DNA from: Anaeromyxobacteraceae bacterium
GTDB taxonomy: Bacteria > Myxococcota > Myxococcia > Myxococcales > Anaeromyxobacteraceae
Length of the DNA stretch: 64,000 nt
Direction: 5' to 3'
Assembly (NCBI GenBank): GCA_047602405.1
Contig: JASGHJ010000002.1
Location: 864,001 to 928,000 of the forward strand
Part shown: positions 41,794 to 62,995 of the stretch, piece after piece
Numbering within the stretch: the first letter of the stretch is position 1
How the letters are laid out: each line of letters starts with the position of its first letter
Program-made: the position numbers and the translations under genes
The notes under the pieces: generated by a model
Seen by the model: only the letters and a program-made list of their open reading frames with translations
Told to the model about the DNA's origin: nothing
The model's database searches: none

Positions 41794-41873
41794 GGGCCGG
41801 CGGCCCGTTACACTCAGTATCGTCCGCCGCCGCGCCCGTCCGGCGGTCCGTGGACTCGATCCCGTTCACCCCC

Positions 41874-41925
41874 CCGTTCGTCCCGAGCGTAGCCACCGCG
41901 CAGCGGTGGCGGAGACGAGGGACGG
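41874..41925 (+). repeat. 52-bp REP-like element, copy 2
   Basis: CCGTTCGTCCCGAGCGTAGCCACCGCGCAGCGGTGGCGGAGACGAGGGACGG. Confidence 0.85.
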
Positions 41926-41976
41926 CCCTGGCACCTGCAGCCAGGCAACTTGAATTCGGCAGATTCTGAGGCGGCC

Positions 41977-42268
41977 GTGCACGAGCTCAAGTTCGACAGG
42001 TGGACCCTGCACGTCGACCCGGTCGCGACCGCGCTCGCCTACGAGAGCATCTCCCCCGGCCCGGAGGACTGCGGCTGCGACGAGTGCCGGAACTTCGCCG
42101 CGCAACGTGAGCGCATCTACCCACGCGAGTTCCTGGAGCTGTGCGCGCGACTCGGCATCCCGCCGGGCAAGGAGGGCGAGGTCTACGGGTGCGGGGGCGG
42201 GCAGGACGGGAGGCACTTCTACGGGGGCTGGTTTCACTTCGTGGGCAGCGTGGAGAACAGGGCTGAAC
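41977..42268 (+). pseudogene. Hypothetical gene (CGCxxC motif), apparently truncated at an 18-bp motif
   Basis: Protein-like up to YGGWFHFVGSVE; frame stays open to 42471 but looks non-coding after the motif at 42266. Confidence 0.5.
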
Positions 42269-42467
42269 TTGATTTCGGCAGGTCTCGGGGGAACGGGTCG
42301 CGTCACGTTCTTGCGATGGGACCTGCGCGCCTCCCGCGCCCCGCTCCGGAAGCCGAGGGTGACGATGGCGGCGCCGCCACTCAGCATCGGCGAGGCGTTG
42401 GGCGCGCGTGCGATGGACGTGTACTCGGGGTTCGTCTAGTCTGTAGCCCCCTGGACCGGGAGGCCGC

Positions 42468-43109
42468 GTGACCTCGCCATCGAAGGCACTTCTCATCGCG
42501 TTCACCCTCGCCATCCCTCTCTCCGCGAGGCCGCTCTGGTACGCGCAGGGCGGGCCGGATGGACGGGTTCGGGCCTGTGCCCAGGCCGAGGACCGCATCG
42601 ACGAGGTGCTCGCGCACGCCAACCAGGGCTGGTCGAAGGCGAGCGGCGGGAAGGGCTCCGCGTGCGCCTACAGGGCCCAGGGCGGCGAGGCCCTCATCGG
42701 TTACATGATCGACTGCCGCGAAGGCGGCGAGCACATGTTCTTCCGCACCCGCGACGACTGCGAGCGGTTCAGGACGACGGTGAACTCCGGGGCCGCGATC
42801 GAGCCCGAGCAGTACGTGCCGAAGGGCACGAAGAACCGAGCGGGGTGGATGAGCGCGCTCACCGCCTGCGTTCACACGATGGCGAAGCCGGCCACCCTCG
42901 AGAAGGCCGGTCTCGGGAATGTGGTCGCGCTGTGCGAGTGCCAGGCGAAGAAGTGCGGCATGGAGGCCGAGGTCACCCCGGAGGTCGCGAGCGAGGCGTT
43001 CATGGCGTGCCTTCGCGAGGCACCGCCCACCGTCCGCGCGAACCTGATCCTGGGGTACCAGGGCGCGAAGGGCGACCCGCCGCCGGCGTCCTCGAAACCT
43101 TCCAGGTAG
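42468..43109 (+). CDS. Secreted Cys-rich hypothetical protein
   Basis: Signal-peptide-like N-terminus; GGAGG RBS; several Cys. Confidence 0.65.
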   Translation: MTSPSKALLIAFTLAIPLSARPLWYAQGGPDGRVRACAQAEDRIDEVLAHANQGWSKASGGKGSACAYRAQGGEALIGYMIDCREGGEHMFFRTRDDCERFRTTVNSGAAIEPEQYVPKGTKNRAGWMSALTACVHTMAKPATLEKAGLGNVVALCECQAKKCGMEAEVTPEVASEAFMACLREAPPTVRANLILGYQGAKGDPPPASSKPSR

Positions 43110-43181
43110 TGCCCTCAACCGCGCGCTCGACCGTGAAGGCCGCGACGATCCGGCTGCCGCCCGCGAGGTCGCGGCCGCCGA

Positions 43182-44798
43182 TCAGTTCCCCCAGCGCGCG
43201 TGGACCTGGGGACCGGAGACGCCTTCCTCGATCCACGCGACGACGGGCCGCCCGTCGGTGTCGAGCGCGAAGGCCGCCGGCCGGCCGGGGTCGGTCGTCG
43301 CGAACGAGATGGGGGCCATCTCCTGGACCCACGCGCTCCCGTCGAACGGGAGGCTCGCCGCCTGGAGGCGGTGGCCGGAGCCCGCGCCCGGCTCCTGCCA
43401 GAGGAGGTGGAGCACGCCCTTCGACGCGATCAGCCCCTTCGCGATCGCCCCCGGGGACGCGACGCCTGGCAGGGCCGTCCAGGTCTGGCCGGAGACGTTG
43501 GCGACCTCCACGACGAGCCCGGCCCCGGGGACGCCGCGGGCGCGGAACAGCCTCCAGTAGTCGCTGTCGGACGTGGCGAGCACGGCGCGGTCGCCGTCGG
43601 GCACCGGCACGGGCGAGCCGATCGGACGCCAGGACGCGCCGTTCCACGCGAGGGTGCGCACGGCCGACCCTCCGCCGGCGCCCGGCTCCACCCACGACAG
43701 CACGGGCACGCCGCCCAGCAGCTCGAAGGCGGGCCGCCCGATGGACGACGACGCGCACGCCAGCTCGGGAGTCTCCTGCCAGGTCGGCGTGGGGCTGTAC
43801 CCGATCGGCTTCCGCACGCCGACGTGGGTGCAGCGGGCAGCCCCGGAGTCCCTCCAGGCCAGGCCCGCGCCGTGGGCGTTCATCTCGAAGGAGACCTCGG
43901 CCACGCCCTCCGTCGCGACCTCCCACGAGCGCACGAAGGAGGGCACGGTTCCCTCCATCCGGAAGACGTGGATGGACTTGCCCTGCACCAGGGCGGCCCA
44001 GTCGTACGGGTCCAGCCGCGCGAAGGCGACCGCCGACTCCGGCCGGAGCGCGCTGGTCGAGGTGCAGGCGTCGTGGATCCGGATGCCTCCGCCGACCTCG
44101 TCGTCGCCGACGTGCCAGCGGCGGCCCGCCCGCTCCAGCGACAGCGTCCGGCCCGTCGGCGTGCCCGCCACCACCTGATCGATCGTCGAGGGGACGGCGA
44201 AGGTCCACTCCGCGCTCGTCGGGTTCCCGGCGAGGTCCTGGACCGTCAACCGGATCGACCCGGCCATCGGGATCGAGGGCGGGTCCAGCGCCACGAGCAA
44301 CCTCTGGTAGTCGGCGCTCGCGATCCGCAGGCCGTCGCCCTGGATCGAGATCGACTCGCGGTCGATGACCTCGTCGAAGTCCACCTCGATCGGACAACCC
44401 TGGAGGTGGTCCGCGCCCGGCAAGGGAGCGCGGCCCACGATCTTCGGCGGGGTCCGATCGACCGTGAAGGTCTCCTTCGCGAACCTCGTGCCCTCGCTGG
44501 TGGTCGCGCGGGCCTGCACCTCGTGGGCGCCCTCCGGGAACGCGGCCACGTCGAACCTGCAGACGCCGGAGCGGGGGGCCATGCAGGAGGGCAGCCCGTC
44601 GACGGTGAAGGTGACGTGGGTCACCTCGGGCGAGGCGTAGACCCCGACCTGCAGGGCATCCCGCACGTGGTCGTAGGGCTCGAACCTGATGGTGAACTCC
44701 TGCACCTGTCGTGGCCCGCCGCCGCCATCGTTCCGGCCGCAGCCCAGCACGAGAGCGAGTGCCCCGGCGACGATGATCGGCTTCGCGTGGCGGTTCAT
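43182..44798 (-). CDS. Lipoprotein with Ig-like domains and a beta-rich C-terminus
   Basis: Lipobox VLGC; FTVDRTPP, VQDLAGN Ig-type motifs. Confidence 0.7.
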   Translation of the reverse strand: MNRHAKPIIVAGALALVLGCGRNDGGGGPRQVQEFTIRFEPYDHVRDALQVGVYASPEVTHVTFTVDGLPSCMAPRSGVCRFDVAAFPEGAHEVQARATTSEGTRFAKETFTVDRTPPKIVGRAPLPGADHLQGCPIEVDFDEVIDRESISIQGDGLRIASADYQRLLVALDPPSIPMAGSIRLTVQDLAGNPTSAEWTFAVPSTIDQVVAGTPTGRTLSLERAGRRWHVGDDEVGGGIRIHDACTSTSALRPESAVAFARLDPYDWAALVQGKSIHVFRMEGTVPSFVRSWEVATEGVAEVSFEMNAHGAGLAWRDSGAARCTHVGVRKPIGYSPTPTWQETPELACASSSIGRPAFELLGGVPVLSWVEPGAGGGSAVRTLAWNGASWRPIGSPVPVPDGDRAVLATSDSDYWRLFRARGVPGAGLVVEVANVSGQTWTALPGVASPGAIAKGLIASKGVLHLLWQEPGAGSGHRLQAASLPFDGSAWVQEMAPISFATTDPGRPAAFALDTDGRPVVAWIEEGVSGPQVHARWGN

Positions 44799-44904
44799 GG
44801 CGGCCCCCCTGGCAACACCAGCAAGGCCCGCACTCGGAGTCAAGGAACATCGCCTGTGCCCGGTTGCCGCAGGTCCGGTCCGGTGGCTCGACCGGACCGA
44901 CGCA

Positions 44905-45009
44905 GAAAAGAGGAAGGCCGGGAGCCCACCCGCTCGTCGCGAGGGAACTCCCGGCCTTCCGGTTGCGCGCGGTAAGGGATTCGAACCCCTGGCCTTCGGC
45001 TCCGGAGGC
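44905..45009. repeat. Left att direct repeat (tRNA-Arg 3' portion plus downstream hairpin)
   Basis: 105-bp match to 56883-56987 with a few mismatches in the hairpin loop. Confidence 0.95.
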
Positions 45010-45363
45010 GGCCCTCGCATCGATGCAACCGTCCCAGCCGGTCGCAACCGTGCGGAACCTCTCGACCGTGGACGTGTGGTCGCCGTCCAAGGATCGCAAC
45101 CCAACCCAGGCACCGTGATCGGCTCTGCTGGACTCTCTGCTGGACCGAAACCGGGCCGAGGGCAGCTCGCGCTGGTGCCGGGGACCGTGGAGGGCCTGCT
45201 CACGGTCCGCGACGTGGCCGAGAGGTTGGCGGTCTCGACGGCGACGGTCTACGGGCTGGTCCGGCGGGGGCTCATCGCGAGCGTCCGGGTCTCGAACGCG
45301 ATCCGATTCGCGAGGAGCGATCTGGAGGAGATGATCGCGCGCGCGGGCTGGAGGCCCGACTGA
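45010..45363 (+). CDS. Displaced integrase C-terminal segment containing an excisionase-like HTH
   Basis: Same frame as the att peptide ARGKGFEPLAFGSG; LLTVRDVAERLAVSTATVYGLV...VRVSNAIRF. Confidence 0.8.
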   Translation, partial: GPRIDATVPAGRNRAEPLDRGRVVAVQGSQPNPGTVIGSAGLSAGPKPGRGQLALVPGTVEGLLTVRDVAERLAVSTATVYGLVRRGLIASVRVSNAIRFARSDLEEMIARAGWRPD

Positions 45364-45424
45364 GCCGGGTTCAGATTGTCCGTCGTCAACTGAGCGTCCT
45401 GGCTCGGGGAGTACCGTATCCGCC

Positions 45425-46078
45425 ATGGGAAAGAAGAGGCGGCGGGAAGAGCCCTGGTACCGGAACAGTTGGCGGGTCGCGCTGCTGTCGTTGGCGGTTG
45501 CCGTCTTGGCATTGGCGGCCAGCATCGTGATCTACGTCCTCCAGTCCCGCGACACCGCGCACGTCGAGTTCGTCCCGGCCCGGACGCGGATCGTGCTGCA
45601 CGAGGGCGACGGTCAGCCGCACGTCGCGATCCTCTCGCTCTTGAGCAAGGGGAATCGAGGAACGGTCGTGCGCGAAATCCGACTGGTAGATTCCGGTGGC
45701 CAGACGATTCGGGGCTACCGCAGCGCTCCTGTTGGCGAGTGCGATCCGCTGCTGCCTATCACCCTGGGTGCTCCGGATGAGCGCGCGGTGACTCTCCGGA
45801 TCTCGCCGGCGGAGGAGGCGCGTCTGAACCGGATCGAGGTGGATGCCATCGAGGGCGCGAAGCCCATCGTGTGGCCCTACGTGCGGATCTCCGGCTTGGC
45901 GGAAGGGCACGGCGGGGCTTTCGGCACCCTCACGATCACGCCCGCCCCCGCCGCGACGGCTCCAGGCGAAACCGCCAAGGCCTCGGACGGTGTCGTGGAC
46001 GAACTGATCCCGGCGAAGAACAACGCCGCCAGGCCTGCCGTTCCTACCTCCGCGCCCCCCAGCAAGACGCCTCCGTGA
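45425..46078 (+). CDS. Membrane-anchored hypothetical protein
   Basis: Basic N-terminus followed by one TM helix. Confidence 0.65.
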   Translation: MGKKRRREEPWYRNSWRVALLSLAVAVLALAASIVIYVLQSRDTAHVEFVPARTRIVLHEGDGQPHVAILSLLSKGNRGTVVREIRLVDSGGQTIRGYRSAPVGECDPLLPITLGAPDERAVTLRISPAEEARLNRIEVDAIEGAKPIVWPYVRISGLAEGHGGAFGTLTITPAPAATAPGETAKASDGVVDELIPAKNNAARPAVPTSAPPSKTPP

Positions 46079-46290
46079 GCCGCTGGAACCACGCGATCTG
46101 CTGGGACTGCTGGGAGCCGGTGATGAGCGCCGCCGGCTACCCGAACCGCGACCCGGTCCGGGTCATCGACTCCGAGCCGGTGCCCTGCTGCTGGTGCGGC
46201 ACCGAGACGGACGCGGGGATCTTCCTGCGGAAGACCCCCGAGGACCCGGGGCTCGCCTGTGCGTTTTCGACGTTCCACGAGGACGAGTAG
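46075..46290 (+). CDS. Small Cys-rich (CxxC...CCxC) hypothetical protein
   Basis: GTGA overlap with upstream stop; HAICWDCW...PCCWCG. Confidence 0.55.
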   Translation: MSRWNHAICWDCWEPVMSAAGYPNRDPVRVIDSEPVPCCWCGTETDAGIFLRKTPEDPGLACAFSTFHEDE

Positions 46291-46452
46291 ACGGTTTCTC
46301 TCTCGGTCGAAACTCACCGCTTTTCGGGGGCTTCGTTCCTGACGGCGTCCCCCGGCGAGGTCCGTGAAGTAGCGGGCTGCCTGGGACATGTCAGCCAGAC
46401 CCTTACTCTCCGTTTTGCGATGTCGGCGAGGCGCGCCCATAATGCCCTGGTC

Positions 46453-47190
46453 ATGCAGGGCGAGATCCTCATCGAGGTCGCCGGGCCAGGCGTACGACCG
46501 CGCACGGTGGCAGCGCGCGAGTTGCTCGCGCTGGCGTCGGCCTACCTCGACGCCATCGCCGGGCTCGTCAGGGACGAGCGGGATCACGAGCTGACCATCC
46601 AGGGAATCCGGATCGTCGCGAAGTGCGCCGCCGTCATGGTGCACGCCGACCGGGGCGATCTTGCTGCGGAAGCCGGCGCGCAGGCCACACGGTATCTCAC
46701 CAACCTGGACGACGCGCCTCACGGCGTCCGCAAGCACCTCGGGCGGCTCGCAGCCGCCATCGGGGAGCTGCCGCCCCAGTACACGCCCTCGGCGCGCTTC
46801 CGCACCTCGAAGGGCGAGCAGGTCTTCAAGCTGGAGGTGGTCAGGCCGGAGGTGACGCTCCCGGCGTTCGAGGTCGTCGTGCTCCGGGCCGAGCCGATCA
46901 AGGCCGGCGGGAACGAGCCCGAGGCTCGGTTTGAAGCGCGCGGGGAGGGGCGGTTCACGCTCAAGGCCCCAGGGGATTGGGACACCATCAGGAAGGTGGG
47001 AGCCTCCCTTCACAAGCCGTGTGACATCGTGGCGAAGGTTCGCCGCAACGCGGAGGGCGTCATCGAGGGCGGCGAGATCCTGGCCGTCGAGATCCCCGAC
47101 GCGGACTCGCGCGGCGCGTGGGAGAAGTGGTACGCGGCGAACGCCAGGAACGTGTCGTTCGAGTCCGAGCAGGAGGGCTCTGACGAGTGA
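46453..47190 (+). CDS. Hypothetical protein, partner of the PIN gene
   Basis: GTGA overlap with the downstream PIN ORF. Confidence 0.7.
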   Translation: MQGEILIEVAGPGVRPRTVAARELLALASAYLDAIAGLVRDERDHELTIQGIRIVAKCAAVMVHADRGDLAAEAGAQATRYLTNLDDAPHGVRKHLGRLAAAIGELPPQYTPSARFRTSKGEQVFKLEVVRPEVTLPAFEVVVLRAEPIKAGGNEPEARFEARGEGRFTLKAPGDWDTIRKVGASLHKPCDIVAKVRRNAEGVIEGGEILAVEIPDADSRGAWEKWYAANARNVSFESEQEGSDE

Positions 47191-47768
47191 GCGGCCCCGT
47201 CCAGACCCCCACGTTCGTCATGGAAGACGCCAAGCTTCCCCGCATGGCCGCCGTCGATGCCGGGGTCCTGTTCAGGGCGCTGGAGAAGAAGAAGAAAGAC
47301 CGCTTCGCCCAGGCGTGCAGGGACTTCTGGGTCGCGATGCTGAAGGACCCGAACCGGCGGATCATCATCCCCGCGCCGGCGTTCGCGGAGTACCTGCGCG
47401 GCGGCGCGTCCGCGCTGCCGAGCACGGCGCAGGTGTACGTGGTGCCGTTCGACGCGAGGTGCGCCGAGATCATGGCGGAGTCGCTGCCGCAGCACATCCT
47501 CTCGGTCCAGATCGCCGCGTTCAAGGCGCAGTACGGGAAGGACCGCGAGGGGAATGAGGCGCCCGGCTCGTTCATCAAGTACGACGCCATGATCGCCGTC
47601 TGCGCGAAGAGGTGGGGCGCCGACCGACTCGTGTCCATCGATACCGACCTGAAGAAGCTCGCCGCGAAGCTGCCGCTGGACTGCCAGACCCCCGACTACT
47701 TCTACGGCGACCAGGTGCACATCGACGTGGCGAAGCTCCGCGCGGTCGGGTCGTCCGAAGAGAAGTAG
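47187..47768 (+). CDS. PIN-domain (VapC-like) nuclease
   Basis: VDAGVL, PAPAFAEY, VVPFD, YDAMIAVCA, SIDTDL acidic tetrad pattern. Confidence 0.78.
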   Translation: MSGPVQTPTFVMEDAKLPRMAAVDAGVLFRALEKKKKDRFAQACRDFWVAMLKDPNRRIIIPAPAFAEYLRGGASALPSTAQVYVVPFDARCAEIMAESLPQHILSVQIAAFKAQYGKDREGNEAPGSFIKYDAMIAVCAKRWGADRLVSIDTDLKKLAAKLPLDCQTPDYFYGDQVHIDVAKLRAVGSSEEK

Positions 47769-47860
47769 CTCGCCAGTAAAGGCGACGCGCCCCCCCGGCA
47801 GGCCCTCGGACTCCGGGAGGAAGTCGGAGCCGGCACCCGATGCGCGGACGAGTACCTTGT

Positions 47861-48274
47861 TCACCGAGTGGTGCGGGCCGCCTCTTCAAGCTGATCGCGG
47901 CTGACGAAGGGCCAGACCCCATGGTCGCCCATCTCGAACCGAGGGGAAAGGCAGCATATGACTCTCCCCACGAACGGAACAGACGCGAGCGGAGGCCACC
48001 GATACGACAGATCGGACCTCAAGAACGTGATGCAGCGGCGGAATCCGTCCGACGCCTCAACTGACAGCGCGAAGCGCCCTTCGAGGCGATGCTCGTGCAG
48101 GTCGTCGTAGTAGTGCCAGACCCAGGCGTACACGGCGTTCACCGCCCGATCCTTGGACCTTGGGTAAGCCTTCTCGAACTCGTCGTTCGTGATCCCGCAC
48201 GCCGCGAGCTTTCCGATGAGTTCAGCTGCCCTGTCCCGCGCCGATTCGTCTCGAACGTCCACGACCGGGACCAT
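47861..48274 (-). CDS. Hypothetical protein
   Basis: ITNDEFE...WHYYDDLHEHRL...RCITFLRSDLSYRWP...WPF; protein-like composition. Confidence 0.65.
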   Translation of the reverse strand: MVPVVDVRDESARDRAAELIGKLAACGITNDEFEKAYPRSKDRAVNAVYAWVWHYYDDLHEHRLEGRFALSVEASDGFRRCITFLRSDLSYRWPPLASVPFVGRVICCLSPRFEMGDHGVWPFVSRDQLEEAARTTR

Positions 48275-48333
48275 ACCGCGCGCACGCTCCGCTCGCGACG
48301 TTGGCAGGACGGGATGCCGAACGCCATGCCGGC

Positions 48334-48555
48334 CTACTCCCCGGGCCAGCGCGCCGCAGTCGAGCTGCACTCCGAGAAGATCACCCGCACGGCAACGCTG
48401 GGCAGGCCCGCCGCTTTCGCATCGGCCAGGAGCTGCTCGCCCTTCGCGATCTCGTCGGCGGGCGTCGTCGGGAGCTGCACCACGACGAGGCACCCCTGGG
48501 GGCTCAACGCGAACTCCAGCGCCTTGATCCGGCTCCCGTGGGACTGGAAGGCCAT
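48334..48555 (-). CDS. Hypothetical protein
   Basis: Tightly packed in the minus-strand operon. Confidence 0.5.
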   Translation of the reverse strand: MAFQSHGSRIKALEFALSPQGCLVVVQLPTTPADEIAKGEQLLADAKAAGLPSVAVRVIFSECSSTAARWPGE

Positions 48556-48558
48556 GGG

Positions 48559-48882
48559 CTAGTGCGAGGCCGTGCGGTTGCGGGCCATGGCCTCTTCGAG
48601 CTTTACGATCCGGCCCTCGTGGTCTGCGTCGCGCAGCACCACGGCGAGCTTCGCGAGGAGGTCGCCCTTCGCGCGCGCGAGCGCGATCCGGAGCGTGGGC
48701 GACAGCTCGGCCGCCGGGATCTCGCACAGCTCGCGGTAGGCCGCCCCGAACGCGCGCCGGATGCCGGCCGGCGAGGAGGTGCGCGGGCCGCGCGGCTTCG
48801 CTCTCCAGTCGTCGCCCTCGGTCGTCGCCGGCGTCGTCTCGGCGGTGCTCTCGCTCTCGTTGTCCATCTCGTCTCCGTTCAT
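48559..48882 (-). CDS. Hypothetical protein
   Basis: Helical C-terminus DHEGRIVKLEEAM; operonic. Confidence 0.6.
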   Translation of the reverse strand: MNGDEMDNESESTAETTPATTEGDDWRAKPRGPRTSSPAGIRRAFGAAYRELCEIPAAELSPTLRIALARAKGDLLAKLAVVLRDADHEGRIVKLEEAMARNRTASH

Positions 48883-49169
48883 CTACGCCCCCGGTGCGCG
48901 CGCTCCCACGCCACGACTGCCCTCCGCTCGTCCTCGGCCCATCGCATCTCTTCCTCGTCCAGCAGCTCCGCGATCAGCTCCTCGCGGATCCCGTCGCGGC
49001 GTGCCTGGCGCTCGCGGCGCACCCGGTCCTGCGCCCGCCACATGGCGCGTACCAGGGGATCACGCAGCAGGCCGTCCCCCTCGGCGTCGTACCCCGGGGG
49101 CGCCGGGGCAATGATGCTGTGGTCGGCGCGCCGGATGAACGCGATCCGGCGGCGCGGCGGCCAGGGCAT
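48879..49169 (-). CDS. Hypothetical protein
   Basis: Abuts neighbouring ORFs. Confidence 0.5.
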   Translation of the reverse strand: MPWPPRRRIAFIRRADHSIIAPAPPGYDAEGDGLLRDPLVRAMWRAQDRVRRERQARRDGIREELIAELLDEEEMRWAEDERRAVVAWERAHRGRR

Positions 49170-49499
49170 CTAGTCCTCCTCGGCCTCGGGCTCGGGGTCG
49201 AAGCCGCGCCCCACGGACACAACCTCGTGCAGGTTCCGGCGCACGTAGTCGTCGCGCGCGGCGTCATCGGCCAGGCTCGATAGGAACCGATCCTCCTTGA
49301 TCGCCAGGGCGACGAGGATTGCGGCCCCGCCGAGCGAGCGGTCCACCGAGGCGTCCGCGAAGCGATGGGCGAGGGCCCGCGCCTCGTCATCGGGAAGCTT
49401 CTCGACGCGCTCCGCGAACTGATCGAGTTCATGGGCGGCACGGTCGGAAAGATTCAGGTCCCTGGCCGCCTCCCTCGCGATCTTGGTGGCGTAGCTCAT
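49170..49499 (-). CDS. Hypothetical protein
   Basis: GGAGG RBS; ATGA overlap with upstream ORF. Confidence 0.65.
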   Translation of the reverse strand: MSYATKIAREAARDLNLSDRAAHELDQFAERVEKLPDDEARALAHRFADASVDRSLGGAAILVALAIKEDRFLSSLADDAARDDYVRRNLHEVVSVGRGFDPEPEAEED

Positions 49500-50362
49500 C
49501 CCTGCACCTCCTTCGTGGTCGTCGTGAACTTCGACTCGGCCAAGACCGCGGCGAAGAGCAGCTCGCTGCGCTTGAAGACCGACGCGCCGTCCAGGAGGAG
49601 GCCTAGGGCCTGCGCCACCAGGGCGGAACTGTTCGCGCCGATGCCGCCGCCGTTCATCCTGTCCCGGAGGTATAGGTGATCGAGCGCGCTCAAGAGCGCG
49701 GCCTTGCTCTTCGCGAGCCGCGCGGGGTCGTTCACCGCCGCGCGCACCCGGGCGGCGTCGCGGGAGTCGGCCTCGCGGGTAGCCTGTTCGAGTTCAGCGC
49801 GAACCCGCTCAAGCGCGACTTCCAGCGCGTCAGCCTCGGCCAGCGCGGTCGCCTCGATCTCGCTCGCCCGCGCCAGGAGGTCCCGCCGCTCGACGAAGAG
49901 CCGATCCGCGTCCGGCCCGGGGTCGAGGGCGCGGCCGATCTGCGCCTCGCGGTGGTGGTCCCGCGCGCTCGACGCGGCGGCGGCCAGCTCCGGGAGCCGA
50001 GCCCGCGCCGCCTCCAGCTCCCCGAAGATCCGGACGTGCTTCGCGCGGAGGTTCACGATCCGCAGGTCGTCCTCGTGGCGGCGGAGAGGACTCGCGGACC
50101 AGTCGCTTCCGTTCGGGCTGGCCCCCGTGGGCGTGCCGGCCGGCCTCGGTTCGCCCCCCTGGGTGGGCCCTGCCGGCGGGGGGTCCGACGCGGCGGCCGG
50201 CGCCGTGCCCGCCGCTGCCCCTCCGCCCGGCGCGGCGGGCTCGGTCGCCTGGCCGGCCTGCTCCAGCTCGGCGGCGCGGTCGGGCAGCGAGCCTGCCGCC
50301 TCGGTCGGCGGGATGCCGCCTCGACGGAAGGGAAACGCCAGGGCCTTGCGCGTGGTCGCCAT
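49496..50362 (-). CDS. Hypothetical protein, disordered N-terminus plus coiled coil
   Basis: Pro/Ala/Gly-rich start followed by heptad-like helices. Confidence 0.65.
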   Translation of the reverse strand: MATTRKALAFPFRRGGIPPTEAAGSLPDRAAELEQAGQATEPAAPGGGAAAGTAPAAASDPPPAGPTQGGEPRPAGTPTGASPNGSDWSASPLRRHEDDLRIVNLRAKHVRIFGELEAARARLPELAAAASSARDHHREAQIGRALDPGPDADRLFVERRDLLARASEIEATALAEADALEVALERVRAELEQATREADSRDAARVRAAVNDPARLAKSKAALLSALDHLYLRDRMNGGGIGANSSALVAQALGLLLDGASVFKRSELLFAAVLAESKFTTTTKEVQG

Positions 50363-50539
50363 CTACGGGCCCGCCCGGCGCTTGGCCCGGGGCGACGGCG
50401 CGCATGCGTCGGGCCGCTGCGCCTGGTCGGCGGTGAGCGTCCGGATCTCGATGCCGGCCGACCCGTAGGTGATCGGGGGTCGAGGCGCCGCGCCGGTGCC
50501 GGCGTCGCGCAACGGGTTCTTCTTCGTGCTTTTCGCCAT
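50363..50539 (-). CDS. Small hypothetical protein (58 aa)
   Basis: AGGAGGAG RBS; MAKSTKKNPLRD...; stop abuts next start. Confidence 0.55.
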   Translation of the reverse strand: MAKSTKKNPLRDAGTGAAPRPPITYGSAGIEIRTLTADQAQRPDACAPSPRAKRRAGP

Positions 50540-50624
50540 CGTCGGCTCCTCCTGGTGGCCGGCGACGGCCGGCCGATGCTCCCAGAAGGTGCCCGGCGGA
50601 CACTCGCAACGTGCAGAGAAGATG

Positions 50625-50978
50625 CTAGGCGGAGCCGGGCCGGCTCCGGTCGCGCCAGCGCCGCACCGTCTGCGGGTGGACGTTGAACCGGCGCCCCGCG
50701 ATGCCCAACGCGCGCTCGACGCCCACGCCCTCGGCCAGCTTCTGCTCCACGAGCCGCACGGCCTCGACCTCGCGGATCTCGTTGTCGGGGCCGGCGTGCG
50801 CGCGAACGTAGCGCAACAGGACGCCCTCGGGACTGTCGGGGTGCGGGTTCTTCGAGGCGAGCACCGCCAAGGCGGCGACGGCGACCGTTCGAGGAGGAGG
50901 CGGATCGGGGCGGCGCGCGCGCGGGGGCCGCGCCCTGATCACGCCCATCGCCCCCCTCGCCGCCGCCGTCGAGCCCAC
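50625..50978 (-). CDS. Hypothetical protein with C-terminal HTH-like segment
   Basis: IAGRRFNVHPQTVRRW. Confidence 0.5.
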   Translation of the reverse strand: MGSTAAARGAMGVIRARPPRARRPDPPPPRTVAVAALAVLASKNPHPDSPEGVLLRYVRAHAGPDNEIREVEAVRLVEQKLAEGVGVERALGIAGRRFNVHPQTVRRWRDRSRPGSA

Positions 50979-51084
50979 GCGCGCGCCCCGCCCCCCTCAC
51001 ACCCTACCCGTCGTCCACGACGTGTCGGCGCCCCGTGGTGTCCCGGAAGCGCGCTTCCCGGCCGCCCCTGGCTGACCCCCGCCG

Positions 51085-51738
51085 CTACGGCGTTTCGGCC
51101 CGTATCTCGGGATCAACTTTTCGGGACGGGTCGAGCGGGAGCACGGGCGCGCCCACCAGGACCCGGGCCACCGTCGAGCGCGGCACCTTCAGGGCCACCG
51201 CGATCTTCCGGATGCTCTCCCCGGCGTCGCGGCGCGCGACCACCTCGGACCGCTGCATAAAGGAGAGGCGCGGCGGCCGACCCCATCGCTGACCCTCACC
51301 CTCCATCCGCTCGCGGGCGGCGGCGATGTTGTCGTTGATGGCCTGACGCTGCACGCGCGCGCCCAGCGCGAGGCCGAAGATGATGCACTCCGAGGCGAGG
51401 TCGTCGGTGCCCACCGGCTTGATCACCAGGTTGTCGCCCGGGATGTGCAGCTCGCAGCCCGCCTGCCGGATCTCGTCTACGATCTTGTACGTGTCCGCGA
51501 CGCCGCTCCTCGTGAGCCGGTCGATCTTGAAGACGTAGAGCTTGCGGATCTCCCCGACCCGGATCGCGGCGCGGACCCGGTCCAGCTCGGGCCTGGCGAG
51601 CTTCTTCCCGGACCGCTTCTCGCAGTACCAGGTGACGACCGTGTCGCCCCTGGCGGTGGCCGCGCGCTGGATGGCGTCGCGCTGGGTGGCCAAGTCCTGC
51701 GACTTCGAGCTGACGCGGGTGTAGGCGGCGACGTTCAC
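51085..51738 (-). CDS. Small serine recombinase (resolvase/invertase) with C-terminal HTH
   Basis: YTRVSS (catalytic Ser), RPEL, KIDRLTRS, GRPP, SIRKIAVALKVPRSTV. Confidence 0.92.
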   Translation of the reverse strand: MNVAAYTRVSSKSQDLATQRDAIQRAATARGDTVVTWYCEKRSGKKLARPELDRVRAAIRVGEIRKLYVFKIDRLTRSGVADTYKIVDEIRQAGCELHIPGDNLVIKPVGTDDLASECIIFGLALGARVQRQAINDNIAAARERMEGEGQRWGRPPRLSFMQRSEVVARRDAGESIRKIAVALKVPRSTVARVLVGAPVLPLDPSRKVDPEIRAETP

Positions 51739-51989
51739 GGCTTCCTCCTGGTCTTGGCCCAGCGGTCGAGCGTGGCGCGGGCGCCATCGGGATCGCGACG
51801 GGCGGCCTCGCGGACGGCCACCGGCACGCGGACGGTCAACATCACCATGGCCGCGCCCGGCGACCCTCGCAGGGCCGTCAGAGGCCCGCCCCGGGCCCGC
51901 TGGCGGTAGTGCGCCACGCACAGCCCGAGCGCCCGCGCCGGCCTGGTACAGCCGGGGCCGGTGCAGCGTCGTGAGGTCGAGCGGGGCAT
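51735..51989 (-). CDS. Small C-C-C-H zinc-finger protein with ribbon-helix-like tail
   Basis: CTGPGC...GLCVAHY; LTVRVP; overlaps resolvase start. Confidence 0.55.
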   Translation of the reverse strand: MPRSTSRRCTGPGCTRPARALGLCVAHYRQRARGGPLTALRGSPGAAMVMLTVRVPVAVREAARRDPDGARATLDRWAKTRRKP

Positions 51990-52555
51990 CGACGGGGATC
52001 TGTGAACGGATCGCTAGCGTATGTCAACAGCGTGATCGACGCGGTCGAGGTCCCTGCCCCCGGGCGGTGACCGTCACCAATGCCGCACGAGACGCGTCAC
52101 CGGTCTCCAGCGACCAGCGTGGCGAGCACGACGTGGAGGGCCTCCGACACCTGGGCTGCCCGTGATCTCGCCCGGTTGCCGGCGACGTTGACGCCCGCCG
52201 CGACGTAGACGGAGCGCCGCGAGACCGTGCGTAGACGGCCGCGACGCGCTCGACCGCGGCTCTGGCGGCGCCGCCGGCTCGTTCCGAGGGCCTCGGCGGC
52301 GTTCGCGGTTCGCGTGACCCGAGTGACGGATCCGGCGCGTTCCGGCAACTCTGCCTGAAAGCTTCTCCAGGAGGAGAATGTCGAGGGTGACGGGATCTGT
52401 CACGTCAGTCACCCTTCCGCCGGGGCTCCGACGACAGGGCAGCGGGGTAGGTTCGGAATCGGCCGGGGCTAGGGTTCGCGGCCCAAACGCGCGCCCCCAG
52501 CGCGCCCGCCCCGTGCCTGTCCACCCTGGGGAAACGTCAGCGCCTGGGGGGCGCC

Positions 52556-53218
52556 GTGCCCAAGCCGCCGGTCGTGTACCGACTCGACATGGTCGAGCGG
52601 GGCTTCCCAACCGCGGACGAGGGCCTCGCAAGGCTCCTGCCGCGGACCTACTTCCCCGAGGCCGCGAAGCTCGCGGGCCTGTTCGGGTTCGACCCGGGGT
52701 TTCCGATCCGTGAACGGCTCGATGAGGCCGCGGGGCTGTACCTCTCGACCCACGCCGCGCGAAGCCCATCCCCCAACGAGCAGCGGAGGCGGCTCGACCT
52801 CGTGGATCGTGCGGCGCGCGCCGTGGCCCGTGGCCACGCCGCTCGTGGAGAGGCGCTCGCCCGCCTACTGGAGGCGGGCGGGATGGCAGGCCTGCCGTTT
52901 CTGGCTCCCGAGATCGAGCTGCGCCGCGCCTCCGGGCTGCCCTTCGCGTTCGGGCGGGCGGAGGCCGAGGCCGTCGTGGCGCAGGTCCGGGCGGCGCGTC
53001 GATGGCTGCCGACTCGGCGCCCGCCCGTCTCGGGCGACAGCGACCTCCGCATCTTCGTGGTGAACATCGCGAAGATCTACCAGGAGGGAACCGGGAAGAA
53101 GCCGGGCCGCGGACGGGAAGGGCCCTTCCCGCGATTCCTCTCGCTCGTCTGCGCGGAGATCGGCATCAAGATCAGCCAGGAAGCCCTCGTGAAGCTGCAC
53201 CGACGCTGGGGAAAATAG
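52556..53218 (+). CDS. Hypothetical protein
   Basis: Long ORF; IYQEGTGKKPG...GPFPRFL. Confidence 0.6.
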   Translation: MPKPPVVYRLDMVERGFPTADEGLARLLPRTYFPEAAKLAGLFGFDPGFPIRERLDEAAGLYLSTHAARSPSPNEQRRRLDLVDRAARAVARGHAARGEALARLLEAGGMAGLPFLAPEIELRRASGLPFAFGRAEAEAVVAQVRAARRWLPTRRPPVSGDSDLRIFVVNIAKIYQEGTGKKPGRGREGPFPRFLSLVCAEIGIKISQEALVKLHRRWGK

Positions 53219-53270
53219 ACCCGAGGGTTGGTCCCAGACCGGCAGTGTTGCGTGCGCTACCAGGTAGCGC

Positions 53271-53468
53271 ATGAACCGTCTGACACGTCGTAGCAAGCTT
53301 CGCGATGCACGGCTGGCTCAAGGCCTGAGCCTGGAACGTGCCGCGGTGGCCGCCGGGATTTCCGTGTGCTGGTTGCGGCAGTTGGAGCGCGACCCCTCCC
53401 TCCTGAGCGTGCGGGTGGCGTCGCGGCTGTTGCCGGTGCTCGGCATCGCCCCCGAGGTGACGCCGTGA
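53271..53468 (+). CDS. XRE/Cro-like HTH regulator
   Basis: LRDARLAQGLSLERAAVAAGISVCWLRQLE. Confidence 0.85.
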   Translation: MNRLTRRSKLRDARLAQGLSLERAAVAAGISVCWLRQLERDPSLLSVRVASRLLPVLGIAPEVTP

Positions 53469-53629
53469 CCGAGAACCCGACCGCCCAGGACGAGGGCGAG
53501 GCGCTGCGGCGGCTCCGCGAGGTGATCGAGCGGGTCCGTCGAGGACCTGCTGCGCCGATGCCGGTTCCCGGTCCGAGCGCCGAGCCCCCACGCCGCCACT
53601 GGACCGATCGCGACGAGGTCGAACCGTGA
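53465..53629 (+). CDS. Small hypothetical protein
   Basis: GTGA overlaps at both ends. Confidence 0.45.
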   Translation: MTENPTAQDEGEALRRLREVIERVRRGPAAPMPVPGPSAEPPRRHWTDRDEVEP

Positions 53630-55087
53630 CCCACGATCAAAGCCCTGGGCCCGGGTTTCGGGCCGAGAGCGAGAGCCCGGAGTTCGAGGCCGAGGCAGCG
53701 GTCGAATACCGAGTCGCGGGTACCGACGAGATCGACAGGCCCCGTTCCGACGCTGGCAACGCAGAGCGTCTGGTCCGGTTGCACGGGCACGAGATCCGGT
53801 ACGTCCACAGGTGGAATCGCTGGCTGCTGTGGGACGGGGCCCGTTGGGCCCTAGACGAGCGCGGAGACGTGGTGCGGCTCGCGATGAGCAGCGCGCGCGA
53901 CCTCATGCTCATCGCGGGGACGATGCGTCCCGGGGCGGACAAGAACGCACTTGTGGCGCACGCGCTGCGAGCCGAGTCACGCTCGGGAATCGACAACGCG
54001 CTCGCCATCGCGCGCAACCTCTCCCAGGTGGCGCTCACCCCCAGTGACCTCGACCGGAACCCGGATCTCCTCAACGTGGCGAACGGGACCCTGGATCTGC
54101 GCAGCGGGAAGCTCAGGCCCCACGACCGCGGAGATAACCTGACCAAGGTCTGCGCAGCGCCCTACGTCCCCGGGGCGTCGTGCCCGACCTGGGACGCCTT
54201 CCTGGCCCGCGTACTGCCCGACACCGAGGTGCGGGCATACCTCAAGCGCGCGGTGGGCTACAGCCTGACGGGCCGCGTGGAGGAGCACGTCCTCCACTTT
54301 CTTCACGGTCGCGGTGCGAACGGAAAGACGACCTTCCTTGAGATCATCAGGTTCCTGTTGGGCGAGGGGGAGTACGCGAAGACGGCGGGCCCCAGCCTGC
54401 TCCTCGCAGCGAGACAAGAGCGGCATGCCGTCGAGATCGCGGACCTCCAGGGTGCCCGCGTCGTGACGACCGTCGAGATGGGCGAGGGGCAGCACTGGGA
54501 CGAGCCGAAGGTGAAGTGGCTAACGGGCGGCGACACCCTCAAGGCGCGGTTCATGCACGAGAACCCGTTCGCCTTCGTGCCCACCCACAAGATTCTGGAT
54601 CGCCGGGAACCACAAGCCGAGGGTGAGCGGCACCGACAACGGCTTCTGGCGGCGGGTCCACATGATCCTGTTCCCGGTAGAGATCCCGGAGGCCGAGAGG
54701 GATCACGAGCTGTTGGCGAAGCTCCGGAACGAGATGACGGGAATCCTGCGATGGGCCGTCGAGGGCTGCCAAGAGTGGCGGCAGATCGGCCTCGCCCCGC
54801 CCCCCGCCGTGCTCGCCGCGGTGAAGGAGTACAGGAGCGACGAGGACGTGGTCGGCGCCTTCCTGGACGAGTGCTGCACCCTCGCACCCGGCGGGCGAGT
54901 CGATTCGAAGGGCCTTAGCGATGAGTTCCGGAGGTGGGCCGATGCGAACGGAGAGAGGCGGCTTTCCACGAAGGCCCTCGGTGGGAACCTGGAAGACCGG
55001 GGCTACCAGAGGAAGGCGTCGGGAGGCCGCCGCTGGATCCTCGGGCTGGAACTGCGCCAGGTGCAGGACGGAGAGGAGGCGGGGTGA
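53626..55087 (+). CDS. P4-family/D5-like SF3 helicase (phage/plasmid primase C-terminal type); +1 frameshift at ~54593
   Basis: DAGNAERL, LLNVANGTLDL, GRGANGKTT, KWLTGGD; corrected HKIWIAGNHKP...FWRR. Confidence 0.9.
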
Positions 55088-55296
55088 CGAATGAACCGAT
55101 GTGGACCGCGGCGGACGTGGCGTCCTTCCTGCGGGTCTCCCGGAGCTGGGTGTACCTGCACGCCGAGGCCGGCGACCTGCCGTCCGTGAAGATCGGCGGC
55201 CTCCGGCGATTCTTGCCCGATCAGATCCGGGCGTACGCAGGCGGCGAGGCCGCGCCCAGGACGACGATCGTGGCGATCTCACCCCGGGGCCGTTGA
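55084..55296 (+). CDS. Excisionase-like HTH protein
   Basis: WTAADVASFLRVSRSWVY...LPSVKIGGLRRF. Confidence 0.85.
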   Translation: MTNEPMWTAADVASFLRVSRSWVYLHAEAGDLPSVKIGGLRRFLPDQIRAYAGGEAAPRTTIVAISPRGR

Positions 55297-55319
55297 TCCC
55301 CTTCGCATATGGGCGGACA

Positions 55320-55514
55320 ATGGCAGACATGAGCAAAGATGCCCGGCTTACCTTTCGGATGTCCCAGCAGGTGCGCGACGCGCTGGAGCGCGCCGCCCAG
55401 GCGGAGCGCCGCAAGACCTCCGACCTCGCGACGATGATCCTGGAGGACTGGTTGGAGTCAAAGGGGCACCTCTCGAAGCTCGGCGCGCCCGCGAAGAAGA
55501 AGGGCAGGGGATAG
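55320..55514 (+). CDS. Ribbon-helix-helix DNA-binding protein
   Basis: RLTFRMSQQVRDALERAAQAERRKTSDL. Confidence 0.7.
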   Translation: MADMSKDARLTFRMSQQVRDALERAAQAERRKTSDLATMILEDWLESKGHLSKLGAPAKKKGRG

Positions 55515-55517
55515 GCC

Positions 55518-57011
55518 ATGGCGAGCGTATTCCGTCGCGTGCGGTGGGTCGCCCTGGGCGGCGAGCGGGTATCGGAGCAGCGGGCCGTGCAGCTCCAGGC
55601 CGAAGGCGTCGCGGTCGAGCGGCGGGAGGGGAAGGTCTGGTACCTCCGATACCGGGCCGAGGGCGGCCGGATGGTCGATCAGCCGTCGCGGGCGAGGACC
55701 AAGCGCGAGGCGGAGAAGCTCGCAGTGGACCTGGAGCGCCGAGCCGAGCGTGTCCGGCTCGGGCTGGAGGTCGGGCTGCCCGAGGACGGCGGCGGCCCGC
55801 TGGCTGAGCTGCTCACCTGGTGGCTCAAGACGCACTCGGCCAGGTCGCCGTCGCACGCCAGGAACGAGAGCGCGATCCGCGCACACCTCCTGAGCAGCGG
55901 CCTCGCCGCCCTGCCGCTCTCGGCGGTGACCTCCGACCGGATCGAGCTGTTCCTCCAGGCGAAGGACGCCGAGCTGGGGCCGCAGAGCGTGAACCACCTG
56001 CGGGGCTACCTCTCGCGCGCGTTCAACGCCGCGAGGAAGGTCAAGCGGTGGGCGGGAAGCAACCCGGTCGTCGCCGTGGAGAAGCGGAAGGTCCCGAAGC
56101 GCATCCCAGACTACCTCCGGGCCAGCGAGGTGCCCGCCGTCATGGCCGCGCTCGCGCCGAAGTTCCGGCCGTTGTTCGCCGCCGCGCTCTACACCGGGAT
56201 GAGGAAGGGCGAGCTGCTGGGGCTGCGGAAGGCGTCCGTGGACTTCGAGGCCGGGGTGATCACGGTGGAGAGGTCCTACGACCGGGACACCACGAAGGGC
56301 GGTCACGCCGACGCCATCCCCATCGCGGCCGAGCTGGAGCCCTTCCTGCGGGCGGCGGTGGAGGCGTCGGGCTCGGGCCTCGTCTTCCCGGGCAGGGGCG
56401 GGGAGATGCTCCCGGAGGCGACGAAGCTGGAGGGCGTCCTGCGGCGCGCGCTCGGCCGCGCCGACATCGTGGAGGGCTACCGCCACGTCTGCCGCGCCCG
56501 GGTGGACGGTCGCGGGAAGCGGGCAAGGTCCGCCCCCCGCTGCGAGCACGTCGAGGTCGCGACGGACCGCGCGCTCCGGCGCTGCCCTCTCCACGGCGAC
56601 GCGCTGTGGCCGGTCGCCCAGGTGCGCAAGCTCCGCTTCCACGATCTGCGGCACACGACGGCGACGCTGCTCCTCAAGGCCGGCGTCCCGCTGGCGACGG
56701 TGCAGAAGATCCTGCGCCACACGGACCCGAAGATCACCGCGAAGGTCTACGGGCACCTCGACCAGGACGACATGCGGGCCGGGCTCGACAAGCTCGCCTT
56801 TGACCTTCCGACCGTCGCGCCGCCCGAGGCCGTCGCGGCCGGCGCGGTCGTGCTGGACTCCGTGCTGGACCGGGCAGGATCGGAAAAGAGGAAGGCCGGG
56901 AGCCCGCCCGCACATCGCGAGGGAACTCCCGGCCTTCCGGTTGCGCGCGGTAAGGGATTCGAACCCCTGGCCTTCGGCTCCGGAGGCCGACGCTCTATCC
57001 AGCTGAGCTAA
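55518..57011 (+). CDS. int: Tyrosine integrase (integrated, short-tail form)
   Basis: TGMRKGEL, FHDLRHT, ILRH...VYGH; reads through att and antisense into the tRNA. Confidence 0.95.
   Translation: MASVFRRVRWVALGGERVSEQRAVQLQAEGVAVERREGKVWYLRYRAEGGRMVDQPSRARTKREAEKLAVDLERRAERVRLGLEVGLPEDGGGPLAELLTWWLKTHSARSPSHARNESAIRAHLLSSGLAALPLSAVTSDRIELFLQAKDAELGPQSVNHLRGYLSRAFNAARKVKRWAGSNPVVAVEKRKVPKRIPDYLRASEVPAVMAALAPKFRPLFAAALYTGMRKGELLGLRKASVDFEAGVITVERSYDRDTTKGGHADAIPIAAELEPFLRAAVEASGSGLVFPGRGGEMLPEATKLEGVLRRALGRADIVEGYRHVCRARVDGRGKRARSAPRCEHVEVATDRALRRCPLHGDALWPVAQVRKLRFHDLRHTTATLLLKAGVPLATVQKILRHTDPKITAKVYGHLDQDDMRAGLDKLAFDLPTVAPPEAVAAGAVVLDSVLDRAGSEKRKAGSPPAHREGTPGLPVARGKGFEPLAFGSGGRRSIQLS
56883..56987. 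repeat. Right att direct repeat
   Basis: Matches 44905-45009. Confidence 0.95.
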
Positions 57012-62923: not shown

Positions 62924-62943
62924 TCCCTCGTCCTTCGACTTCG

Positions 62944-62995
62944 CCATCCCTCGTCTCCGCCACCGCTTCGCGGTGGCTACGCTCGGGACGTACGG
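62944..62995 (-). repeat. 52-bp REP-like element, copy 3 (partial copy follows to ~63024)
   Basis: Reverse complement matches copies 1 and 2. Confidence 0.85.

Follow-up and report, generated by a model that had tools for sequence, protein, structure and literature searches.

Myxobacterial phages provide the closest described parallels to the integrase gene considered here. In phage Mx8, the phage attachment site (attP) lies inside the integrase gene (int) and the C-terminus of the protein is altered, and Mx9 is said to be similar in the available excerpts of PMC6070905. According to the accessible part of PMC4701971, integration converts Mx8 IntP into IntX (IntR), swapping a 112-residue C-terminus for 13 residues and leaving a less active enzyme. 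Archaeal integrases of the SSV type also carry the attachment site (att) inside int, and integration breaks that gene into two pieces, as excerpts of PMC7253208 describe. We analyzed a 64,000-nt stretch of DNA (the window) from Anaeromyxobacteraceae bacterium (assembly GCA_047602405.1, contig JASGHJ010000002.1, positions 864,001-928,000, forward strand), which carries an 11,978-bp element with the att core inside the int reading frame. The integrated copy encodes a 497-amino-acid (aa) enzyme, and the sequence indicates that the excised circle would encode a protein of 607 aa ending in a winged-helix domain. This feature is genuine and occurs throughout the family, and it is a variant of the published attP-in-int switch that is already present in a deposited phage sequence.

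The element is bounded by a direct repeat of 124 nt with 92% identity (44886-45009 and 56864-56987), within which 73 bp are perfectly conserved (44937-45009 and 56915-56987). ARAGORN placed the sole tRNA gene of the window, tRNA-Arg(CCG), on the minus strand at 57017-56943, and the right perfect block includes the 3' 45 nt of this tRNA, from the anticodon arm onward. The same tRNA site is empty in a close relative (G034), consistent with its role as the integration target. Because repeat identity stops at tRNA position 31, the crossover most likely falls in the anticodon arm; any crossover inside the perfect 73-bp block gives the same circle. The right att copy lies within int (55518-57011, plus strand), which encodes a tyrosine integrase (Pfam Phage_integrase, E = 2.3e-21; phrog_1, E = 3.5e-64). 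Translation gave 490 codons up to position 56987, followed by RRSIQLS and a stop antisense inside the tRNA, 497 aa in total. The left att copy, which comparison of the repeats resolves into the displaced tRNA 3' half and 79 nt of arm-like sequence, also encodes the ARGKGFEPLAFGSG peptide, in a frame that stays open for another 117 codons (45010-45360). This detached tail (45010-45363, plus strand) is in frame with int across att and consists of a linker of about 62 codons and a winged helix-turn-helix (HTH) domain at 45196-45342. Joining the two parts in silico gave the 607-aa reading frame with no internal stop. The antisense ending of int, the open frame beyond the left att and the longer joined product had all been proposed by a first-pass annotation of this DNA, and our translations reproduced each of them.

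The catalytic domain is whole in the integrated form, since the Phage_integrase match ends at residue 416 and the crossover lies near residue 490. In this respect the element differs from the SSV type: the short form retains every modelled catalytic part and loses an accessory domain only. The element is GC-rich, and 30% of random starts on its plus strand stay open for 117 codons; openness alone was therefore dropped as evidence, and the signal above chance comes from the in-frame HTH recurring in relatives. A hairpin within int (56890-56938) with a T-run on the minus strand only is likely the terminator of the tRNA gene.

We compared this arrangement with the two myxophages. Mx9 Int (AY247757, 548 aa) also contains a tRNA-derived core within the gene (codons ~465-479) followed by an HTH_17 domain at residues 489-537, and it shares 35% identity with the integrase studied here over residues 146-428 and 50% in the HTH. 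The only phage matches of the tail were to the Mx9 Int C-terminus (2 records), and the Mx9 HTH scored as a tail (64.6 bits with the tail profile versus 39.0 with the profile of the excisionase, Xis). The Mx9 core is a 42-bp match to the 5' half of tRNA-Gly and is separated from the HTH by about 10 codons, whereas the core here is the 3' half of tRNA-Arg and is followed by a 62-codon linker carrying an arm site and 10-bp repeats. Mx8, like the studied element, has a separate HTH_17 excisionase upstream (Uoi), but neither Pfam nor the tail profile detects an HTH in its tail; no profile match linked the studied tail to the Mx8 112-residue C-terminus, and Mx8 Int was absent among the listed phage matches of both the studied Int and Mx9 Int. 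The closer precedent is Mx9; Mx8, cited as the precedent by the first-pass annotation, holds for the principle of attP inside int but was rejected where the structure of the HTH is concerned. The same annotation described a small non-phage element. No virion genes were found among the 19 open reading frames (ORFs) scanned against PHROGs, and this 12-kb island differs in that from Mx9, a 53-kb tailed phage; the layout, however, is also found in elements of 20-46 kb and in Mx9 itself, so it is not confined to small or non-phage elements. The HTH domain of Int was not mentioned in the Mx9 genome announcement, and no HTH tail was described in the available portions of PMC4383910, PMC11610982, PMC8138268, PMC5861418 and a 2026 preprint. 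The literature searched gave no description of the tail or its family, although the primary Mx8 and Mx9 papers may mention it.

The conservation of the fusion was assessed across related elements. The Int clade was present in 115 of 270 genomes of the class. We sampled 60 of 150 listed matches, favouring long contigs, and added two elements of the source genome, giving 62; the second att was sought within up to 20 kb, and more DNA was taken for 11 loci. A second att was found within 20 kb in 39 elements, of which 30 were in frame and open to the HTH, three were out of frame, one had an int that stopped first, one had a linker stop and four had no HTH. The 11 extended loci yielded five new second atts at 20-51 kb (three in frame, one out of frame, one with int stopping first), and 18 of the 62 elements had none. 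In total, 33 of the 40 elements with both att ends and an HTH were in frame and open, against about 5.7 expected from the other frames (open in 25 of 58 cases), with the caveat that kin are not independent. The in-frame elements used eight tRNA targets and all three antisense frames, forming nine tRNA-by-frame classes (frame use 13/7/4 with five unassigned, n = 29). One in-frame element (L165), resting on a weak 31-nt match at a contig end, was counted among the 30 and left out of the 29-element set used for the frame classes and the comparisons built on it. The nine classes and three frames in use indicate that each retargeting kept the fusion, and this pattern across sequences shows that the fusion is under selection. 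In tandem arrays (L113/L112 and L123-L125), neighbours have the same tRNA-Gly core but differ in the frame in which they read it, and each frame fits the element's own tail, so that an inner integrase does not take the tail of the outer element; only two independent cases bear on this.

Fused proteins were also found in databases, as the first-pass annotation had suggested searching for. HTH_17 was present in 8 of the best 120 homologues listed (1180 found); inspected by eye, these 8 showed a tRNA-antisense peptide, a linker and the HTH, and most short forms ended in tRNA-antisense peptides. A search with one natural tail returned 6 further long forms, and Mx9 Int is another. Among 79 GTDB loci, almost all of which carry myxobacterial, delta-proteobacterial or unclassified proteobacterial labels, int ran antisense into a tRNA in 64, was long in 2 and stopped before the tRNA in 5, while the others had neither tRNA nor HTH (4), a contig end (3) or an HTH beyond the stop (1). 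No match was obtained in plasmid sequences at E 1e-20, and a scan of IMG/VR returned distant integrases only (78 loci, best E = 2e-19), which were not used.

Further side observations concern variant layouts. One element (L136) has a tRNA-like core read in the sense direction, with the HTH tail still in frame. In five others (L129, L130, L131, L155 and L170), the integrase stops 6-11 residues past the core with no tRNA adjoining. In L131, an arm repeat and a tRNA half were located about 450 bp downstream, beyond inserted DNA.

The tail matched HTH_17 (PF12728) over tail residues 63-111 (E = 1.2e-12) and TIGR01764 above its cut-off, confirming the winged HTH that had been read from the sequence by eye. 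The element also carries its own free Xis-like gene at 55084-55296 on the plus strand (HTH_17, E = 3.7e-10; PHROGs; Xis clade in the tree), as previously suggested, and such a gene was present near int in 24 of 29 elements. Tails and upstream Xis proteins formed cleanly separate clades (support 100/96), with mean identities of 50% among tails, 45% among Xis and 29% between the groups, and the tail conserves a recognition helix and a wing of its own (TATVY, RVSNAIR). By these comparisons the tail is a lineage separate from the element's free Xis and not a second Xis copy. In an AlphaFold model of a natural long form (P0044), a three-stranded domain at the N-terminus and the integrase core were followed by about 100 residues of low confidence and then by a folded winged helix; pLDDT was below 50 for residues 401-500 and 78-94 for the HTH. 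The tail domain is thus predicted to be tethered on a disordered linker of about 100 residues. The best fold match of the model was lambda Int, and the modelled three-stranded, core-binding and catalytic domains resemble those of lambda-type arm-binding integrases. The long-form profile matched Pukovnik Xis (4J2N) over the tail (E = 3.8e-4), and a query of the ESM Atlas with a natural linker plus tail gave no usable match. As a side observation, the catalytic domain of this family contains an inserted, conserved cluster of cysteines (C325, C342 and C356; window 56480-56620, int residues ~325-357), possibly a zinc site.

The least probable of the alternatives considered is that the HTH belongs to an independent small gene beside att and that the in-frame read-through is incidental. 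An independent start has some footing: two GTG codons lie 7 and 3 codons ahead of the HTH here, where an internal start may be used, start codons occur nearby in 20 of 30 tails, and two database entries represent such tails as stand-alone proteins. The linker is also free of protein-level selection. In eight pairs of related elements, linker substitutions were even over codon positions (74/90/93), whereas HTH substitutions leaned to the third position (68/49/106), indicating that the linker is kept open while its amino acids matter little; GC content at third codon positions was 0.61 in the linker and 0.97 in the HTH. Against an independent gene stand the frame kept in 33 of 40 elements across three frames, the 10 of 30 tails without ATG, GTG or TTG in the 15 codons preceding the HTH, and the natural fused proteins, Mx9 Int included.

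The DNA around the core was then compared among 27 elements, L136 and L168 also being left out of this set. A repeat of at least 16 nt was present on both sides of the core in 19 of the 27 elements, 237-275 bp apart and in the same frame in 17, and these shared flanking repeats are likely Int arm sites, judging from their position. In spanning about 250 bp between arm repeats, attP of this family resembles that of lambda-type integrases. In the studied element, a pair of TGCTGGAC repeats 12 bp apart (56851-56870, plus strand) is the likely arm-binding site on the int side, and a second TGCTGGAC pair (45126-45145, plus strand) is the likely one on the tail side. The two pairs would lie 253 bp apart in attP and hence in different frames; since the HTH is nevertheless in frame, a compensating change is implied. 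The tail linker further contains CA(A/G)CC repeats at 45026, 45035, 45045, 45097 and 45102 (45026-45106, plus strand). Across the 27 linkers, 10-bp periodicity was confined to this side (0.026, compared with 0.005 in shuffled sequence and 0.006 on the int side), and the motif pair was seen in 12 of 29 elements by the pattern used. Partial texts describe directionality factors that bind repeats one helical turn apart, namely RdfS (PMC11963761) and, by analogy, Apl of phage 186, and the CA(A/G)CC repeats are likely a binding array for a winged-helix protein.

The distribution of this motif bears on whether the long Int might be a transcriptional autoregulator, its HTH binding promoters of the element in the circular state alone. 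Excerpts of PMC11963761 do describe promoter regulation by HTH_17 directionality factors, RdfS among them. The motif pair, however, was not enriched upstream of xis and int (0.64 per kb, compared with 4.77 in the linker and 0.46 elsewhere), and no second copy of the element's repeat array beyond chance was found within the window, making this role very improbable.

The first-pass annotation had inferred that the domain swap controls recombination directionality, which is here a proposal only. As the best explanation we favour, with modest confidence, a model in which the tail of the circle form binds the 10-bp array and promotes the integrative complex, perhaps in competition with free Xis, and the short Int and Xis carry out excision after insertion. 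The linker codons would double as attP DNA, containing arm sites, core and 10-bp repeats. In the circle, the tethered domain would occupy the 10-bp repeats between the core and the arm site, and it would bend the DNA or out-compete free Xis, which is likely co-transcribed with int. After insertion the tail would have no integrase to join, and the short Int with free Xis would mainly excise. In lambda-type systems, including those of Pukovnik Xis, RdfS and Apl, the factor is free, whereas the element studied here would carry a second, distinct winged helix in covalent linkage, and only while it is excised. A more elaborate form of this proposal holds that, in this widespread myxobacterial integrase family, a dedicated Xis paralogue, joined to the integrase only in the excised state, acts as an anti-excisionase that takes the Xis array, forces integration and is cut off by its own reaction, and that one sub-lineage gates the tail by programmed -1 frameshifting; we regard this whole as tentative, with chances well short of even.

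The swap could set the level of activity and not its direction. If Int of the circle owed a generally higher activity, greater stability or stronger DNA affinity to its tail, loss of the tail would simply damp recombination when integrated, as might be expected from the integrated form of Mx8, described in partial texts as less active and altered in efficiency on several att pairs; one sub-lineage also appears integrated without an in-frame tail. The conserved recognition helix and wing and the adjoining periodic repeats suggest instead site-specific binding, and we give this possibility only a small chance. A tethered excisionase, with the tail holding the circle in the excised state or preventing its re-integration during replication and transfer, is unlikelier still. 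The HTH_17/TIGR01764 domain and the Pukovnik Xis match agree with such a role, but an incoming circle, or phage Mx9, makes the long form only and must integrate with it, and a separate Xis of the other lineage is kept in 24 of 29 elements.

Several observations weigh against integration being promoted by array binding of the tethered tail. The HTH_17 directionality factors known from the accessible part of PMC11963761 promote excision, not integration, and free Xis would be an equally natural binder of the 10-bp repeats. The tree separating tail from Xis used 68 columns, and its bootstrap had not settled. The GTG codons ahead of the HTH leave room for an internal start, as noted above. The fusion was broken in 7 of 40 elements (four out of frame, two with int stopping before att and one with a linker stop), and no HTH was scored in 4 of 44; one of these (L124) reflects a mis-picked repeat whose 94% copy is in frame, and it was left as lacking an HTH in the tally. 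One whole contig with a natural long form was checked and contained no tRNA and no terminal repeat, and long forms could alternatively derive from tandem arrays. The studied element may also be decaying, given its frameshifted helicase.

The sub-lineage with a stop before att belongs among these points. In four loci (L314-L317; G161:C3, G114:C59, G081:C2 and G086:C23), the int 3' end at tRNA-Pro(CGG) has an arm 1 nt short, as judged against 6 relatives sharing the arm repeat; a G5A5 run directly precedes a hairpin, and a stop falls shortly ahead of the end of the tRNA. The open -1 frame is that of the tail in both elements with both ends (L126 and L153). Two sub-lineage elements (10.5 and 51 kb) are integrated despite the stop before att, so such elements may do without the tail or reach it by frameshifting. 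The sequences fit either an inherited lesion or programmed -1 frameshifting, the latter as a candidate only.

In Mx8 the swapped tail has no recognizable domain, and it has therefore been difficult to test how the exchange alters the enzyme. The part exchanged in the present family is a defined DNA-binding domain lying beside a candidate binding array, which makes the mechanism directly testable and gives a reason for the Mx9 layout. Because annotations list these integrases in truncated form, cloning them as a myxobacterial genetic tool likely needs the circle form; across the family, at least 8 tRNA target sites are available.

The right end of the element consists of xis, a 63-aa ORF and int. 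The 63-aa ORF (55322-55514, plus strand) appears ribbon-helix-helix-like by eye and matched no family, and no homologue was found in 61 related stretches. Upstream lies a D5-type primase/helicase (53626-55087, plus strand; Pfam, PHROGs), whose frameshift near 54,590-54,620 is either decay or an assembly error. A serine resolvase/invertase occupies 51085-51921 on the minus strand (ORF limits; domain from residue 64; Pfam, PHROGs). A cargo pair of overlapping genes at 46420-47768 (plus strand) encodes a 256-aa protein without a family and a PIN-domain protein (E = 1.8e-5, above the cut-off), possibly a toxin-antitoxin module if the two are indeed paired. The element as a whole may be a phage satellite. 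Between the host core and the left att lies a further insert of about 3.1 kb (41795-44885), absent at the same site in G034, where the empty tRNA site is joined to DNA matching the window up to 41794. This insert contains two ORFs without a Pfam family and has a 53-nt inverted-repeat partner at 62943-62995. It is probably older than the element, and its position beside the left att probably explains why the repeat runs 79 nt past the tRNA end; on the G034 comparison, an older insert was favoured and captured host sequence was rejected as the source of the 124-bp repeat.

The source genome carries a second element of the family at tRNA-Pro(CGG) (G000:C2 366,900-382,800; 15.8 kb) with the same in-frame split. 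Two further loci of this genome were observed. At G000:C1 514,865-531,110, an island at tRNA-Gly(CCC) has an intact att-to-HTH tail at its far end, and its integrase, of another clade, ends about 740 bp before the tRNA, leaving the tail an orphan. At G000:C1 66,396-67,953, an integrase beside tRNA-Arg(ACG) is followed directly by a separate HTH ORF, which is a conventional unfused layout.

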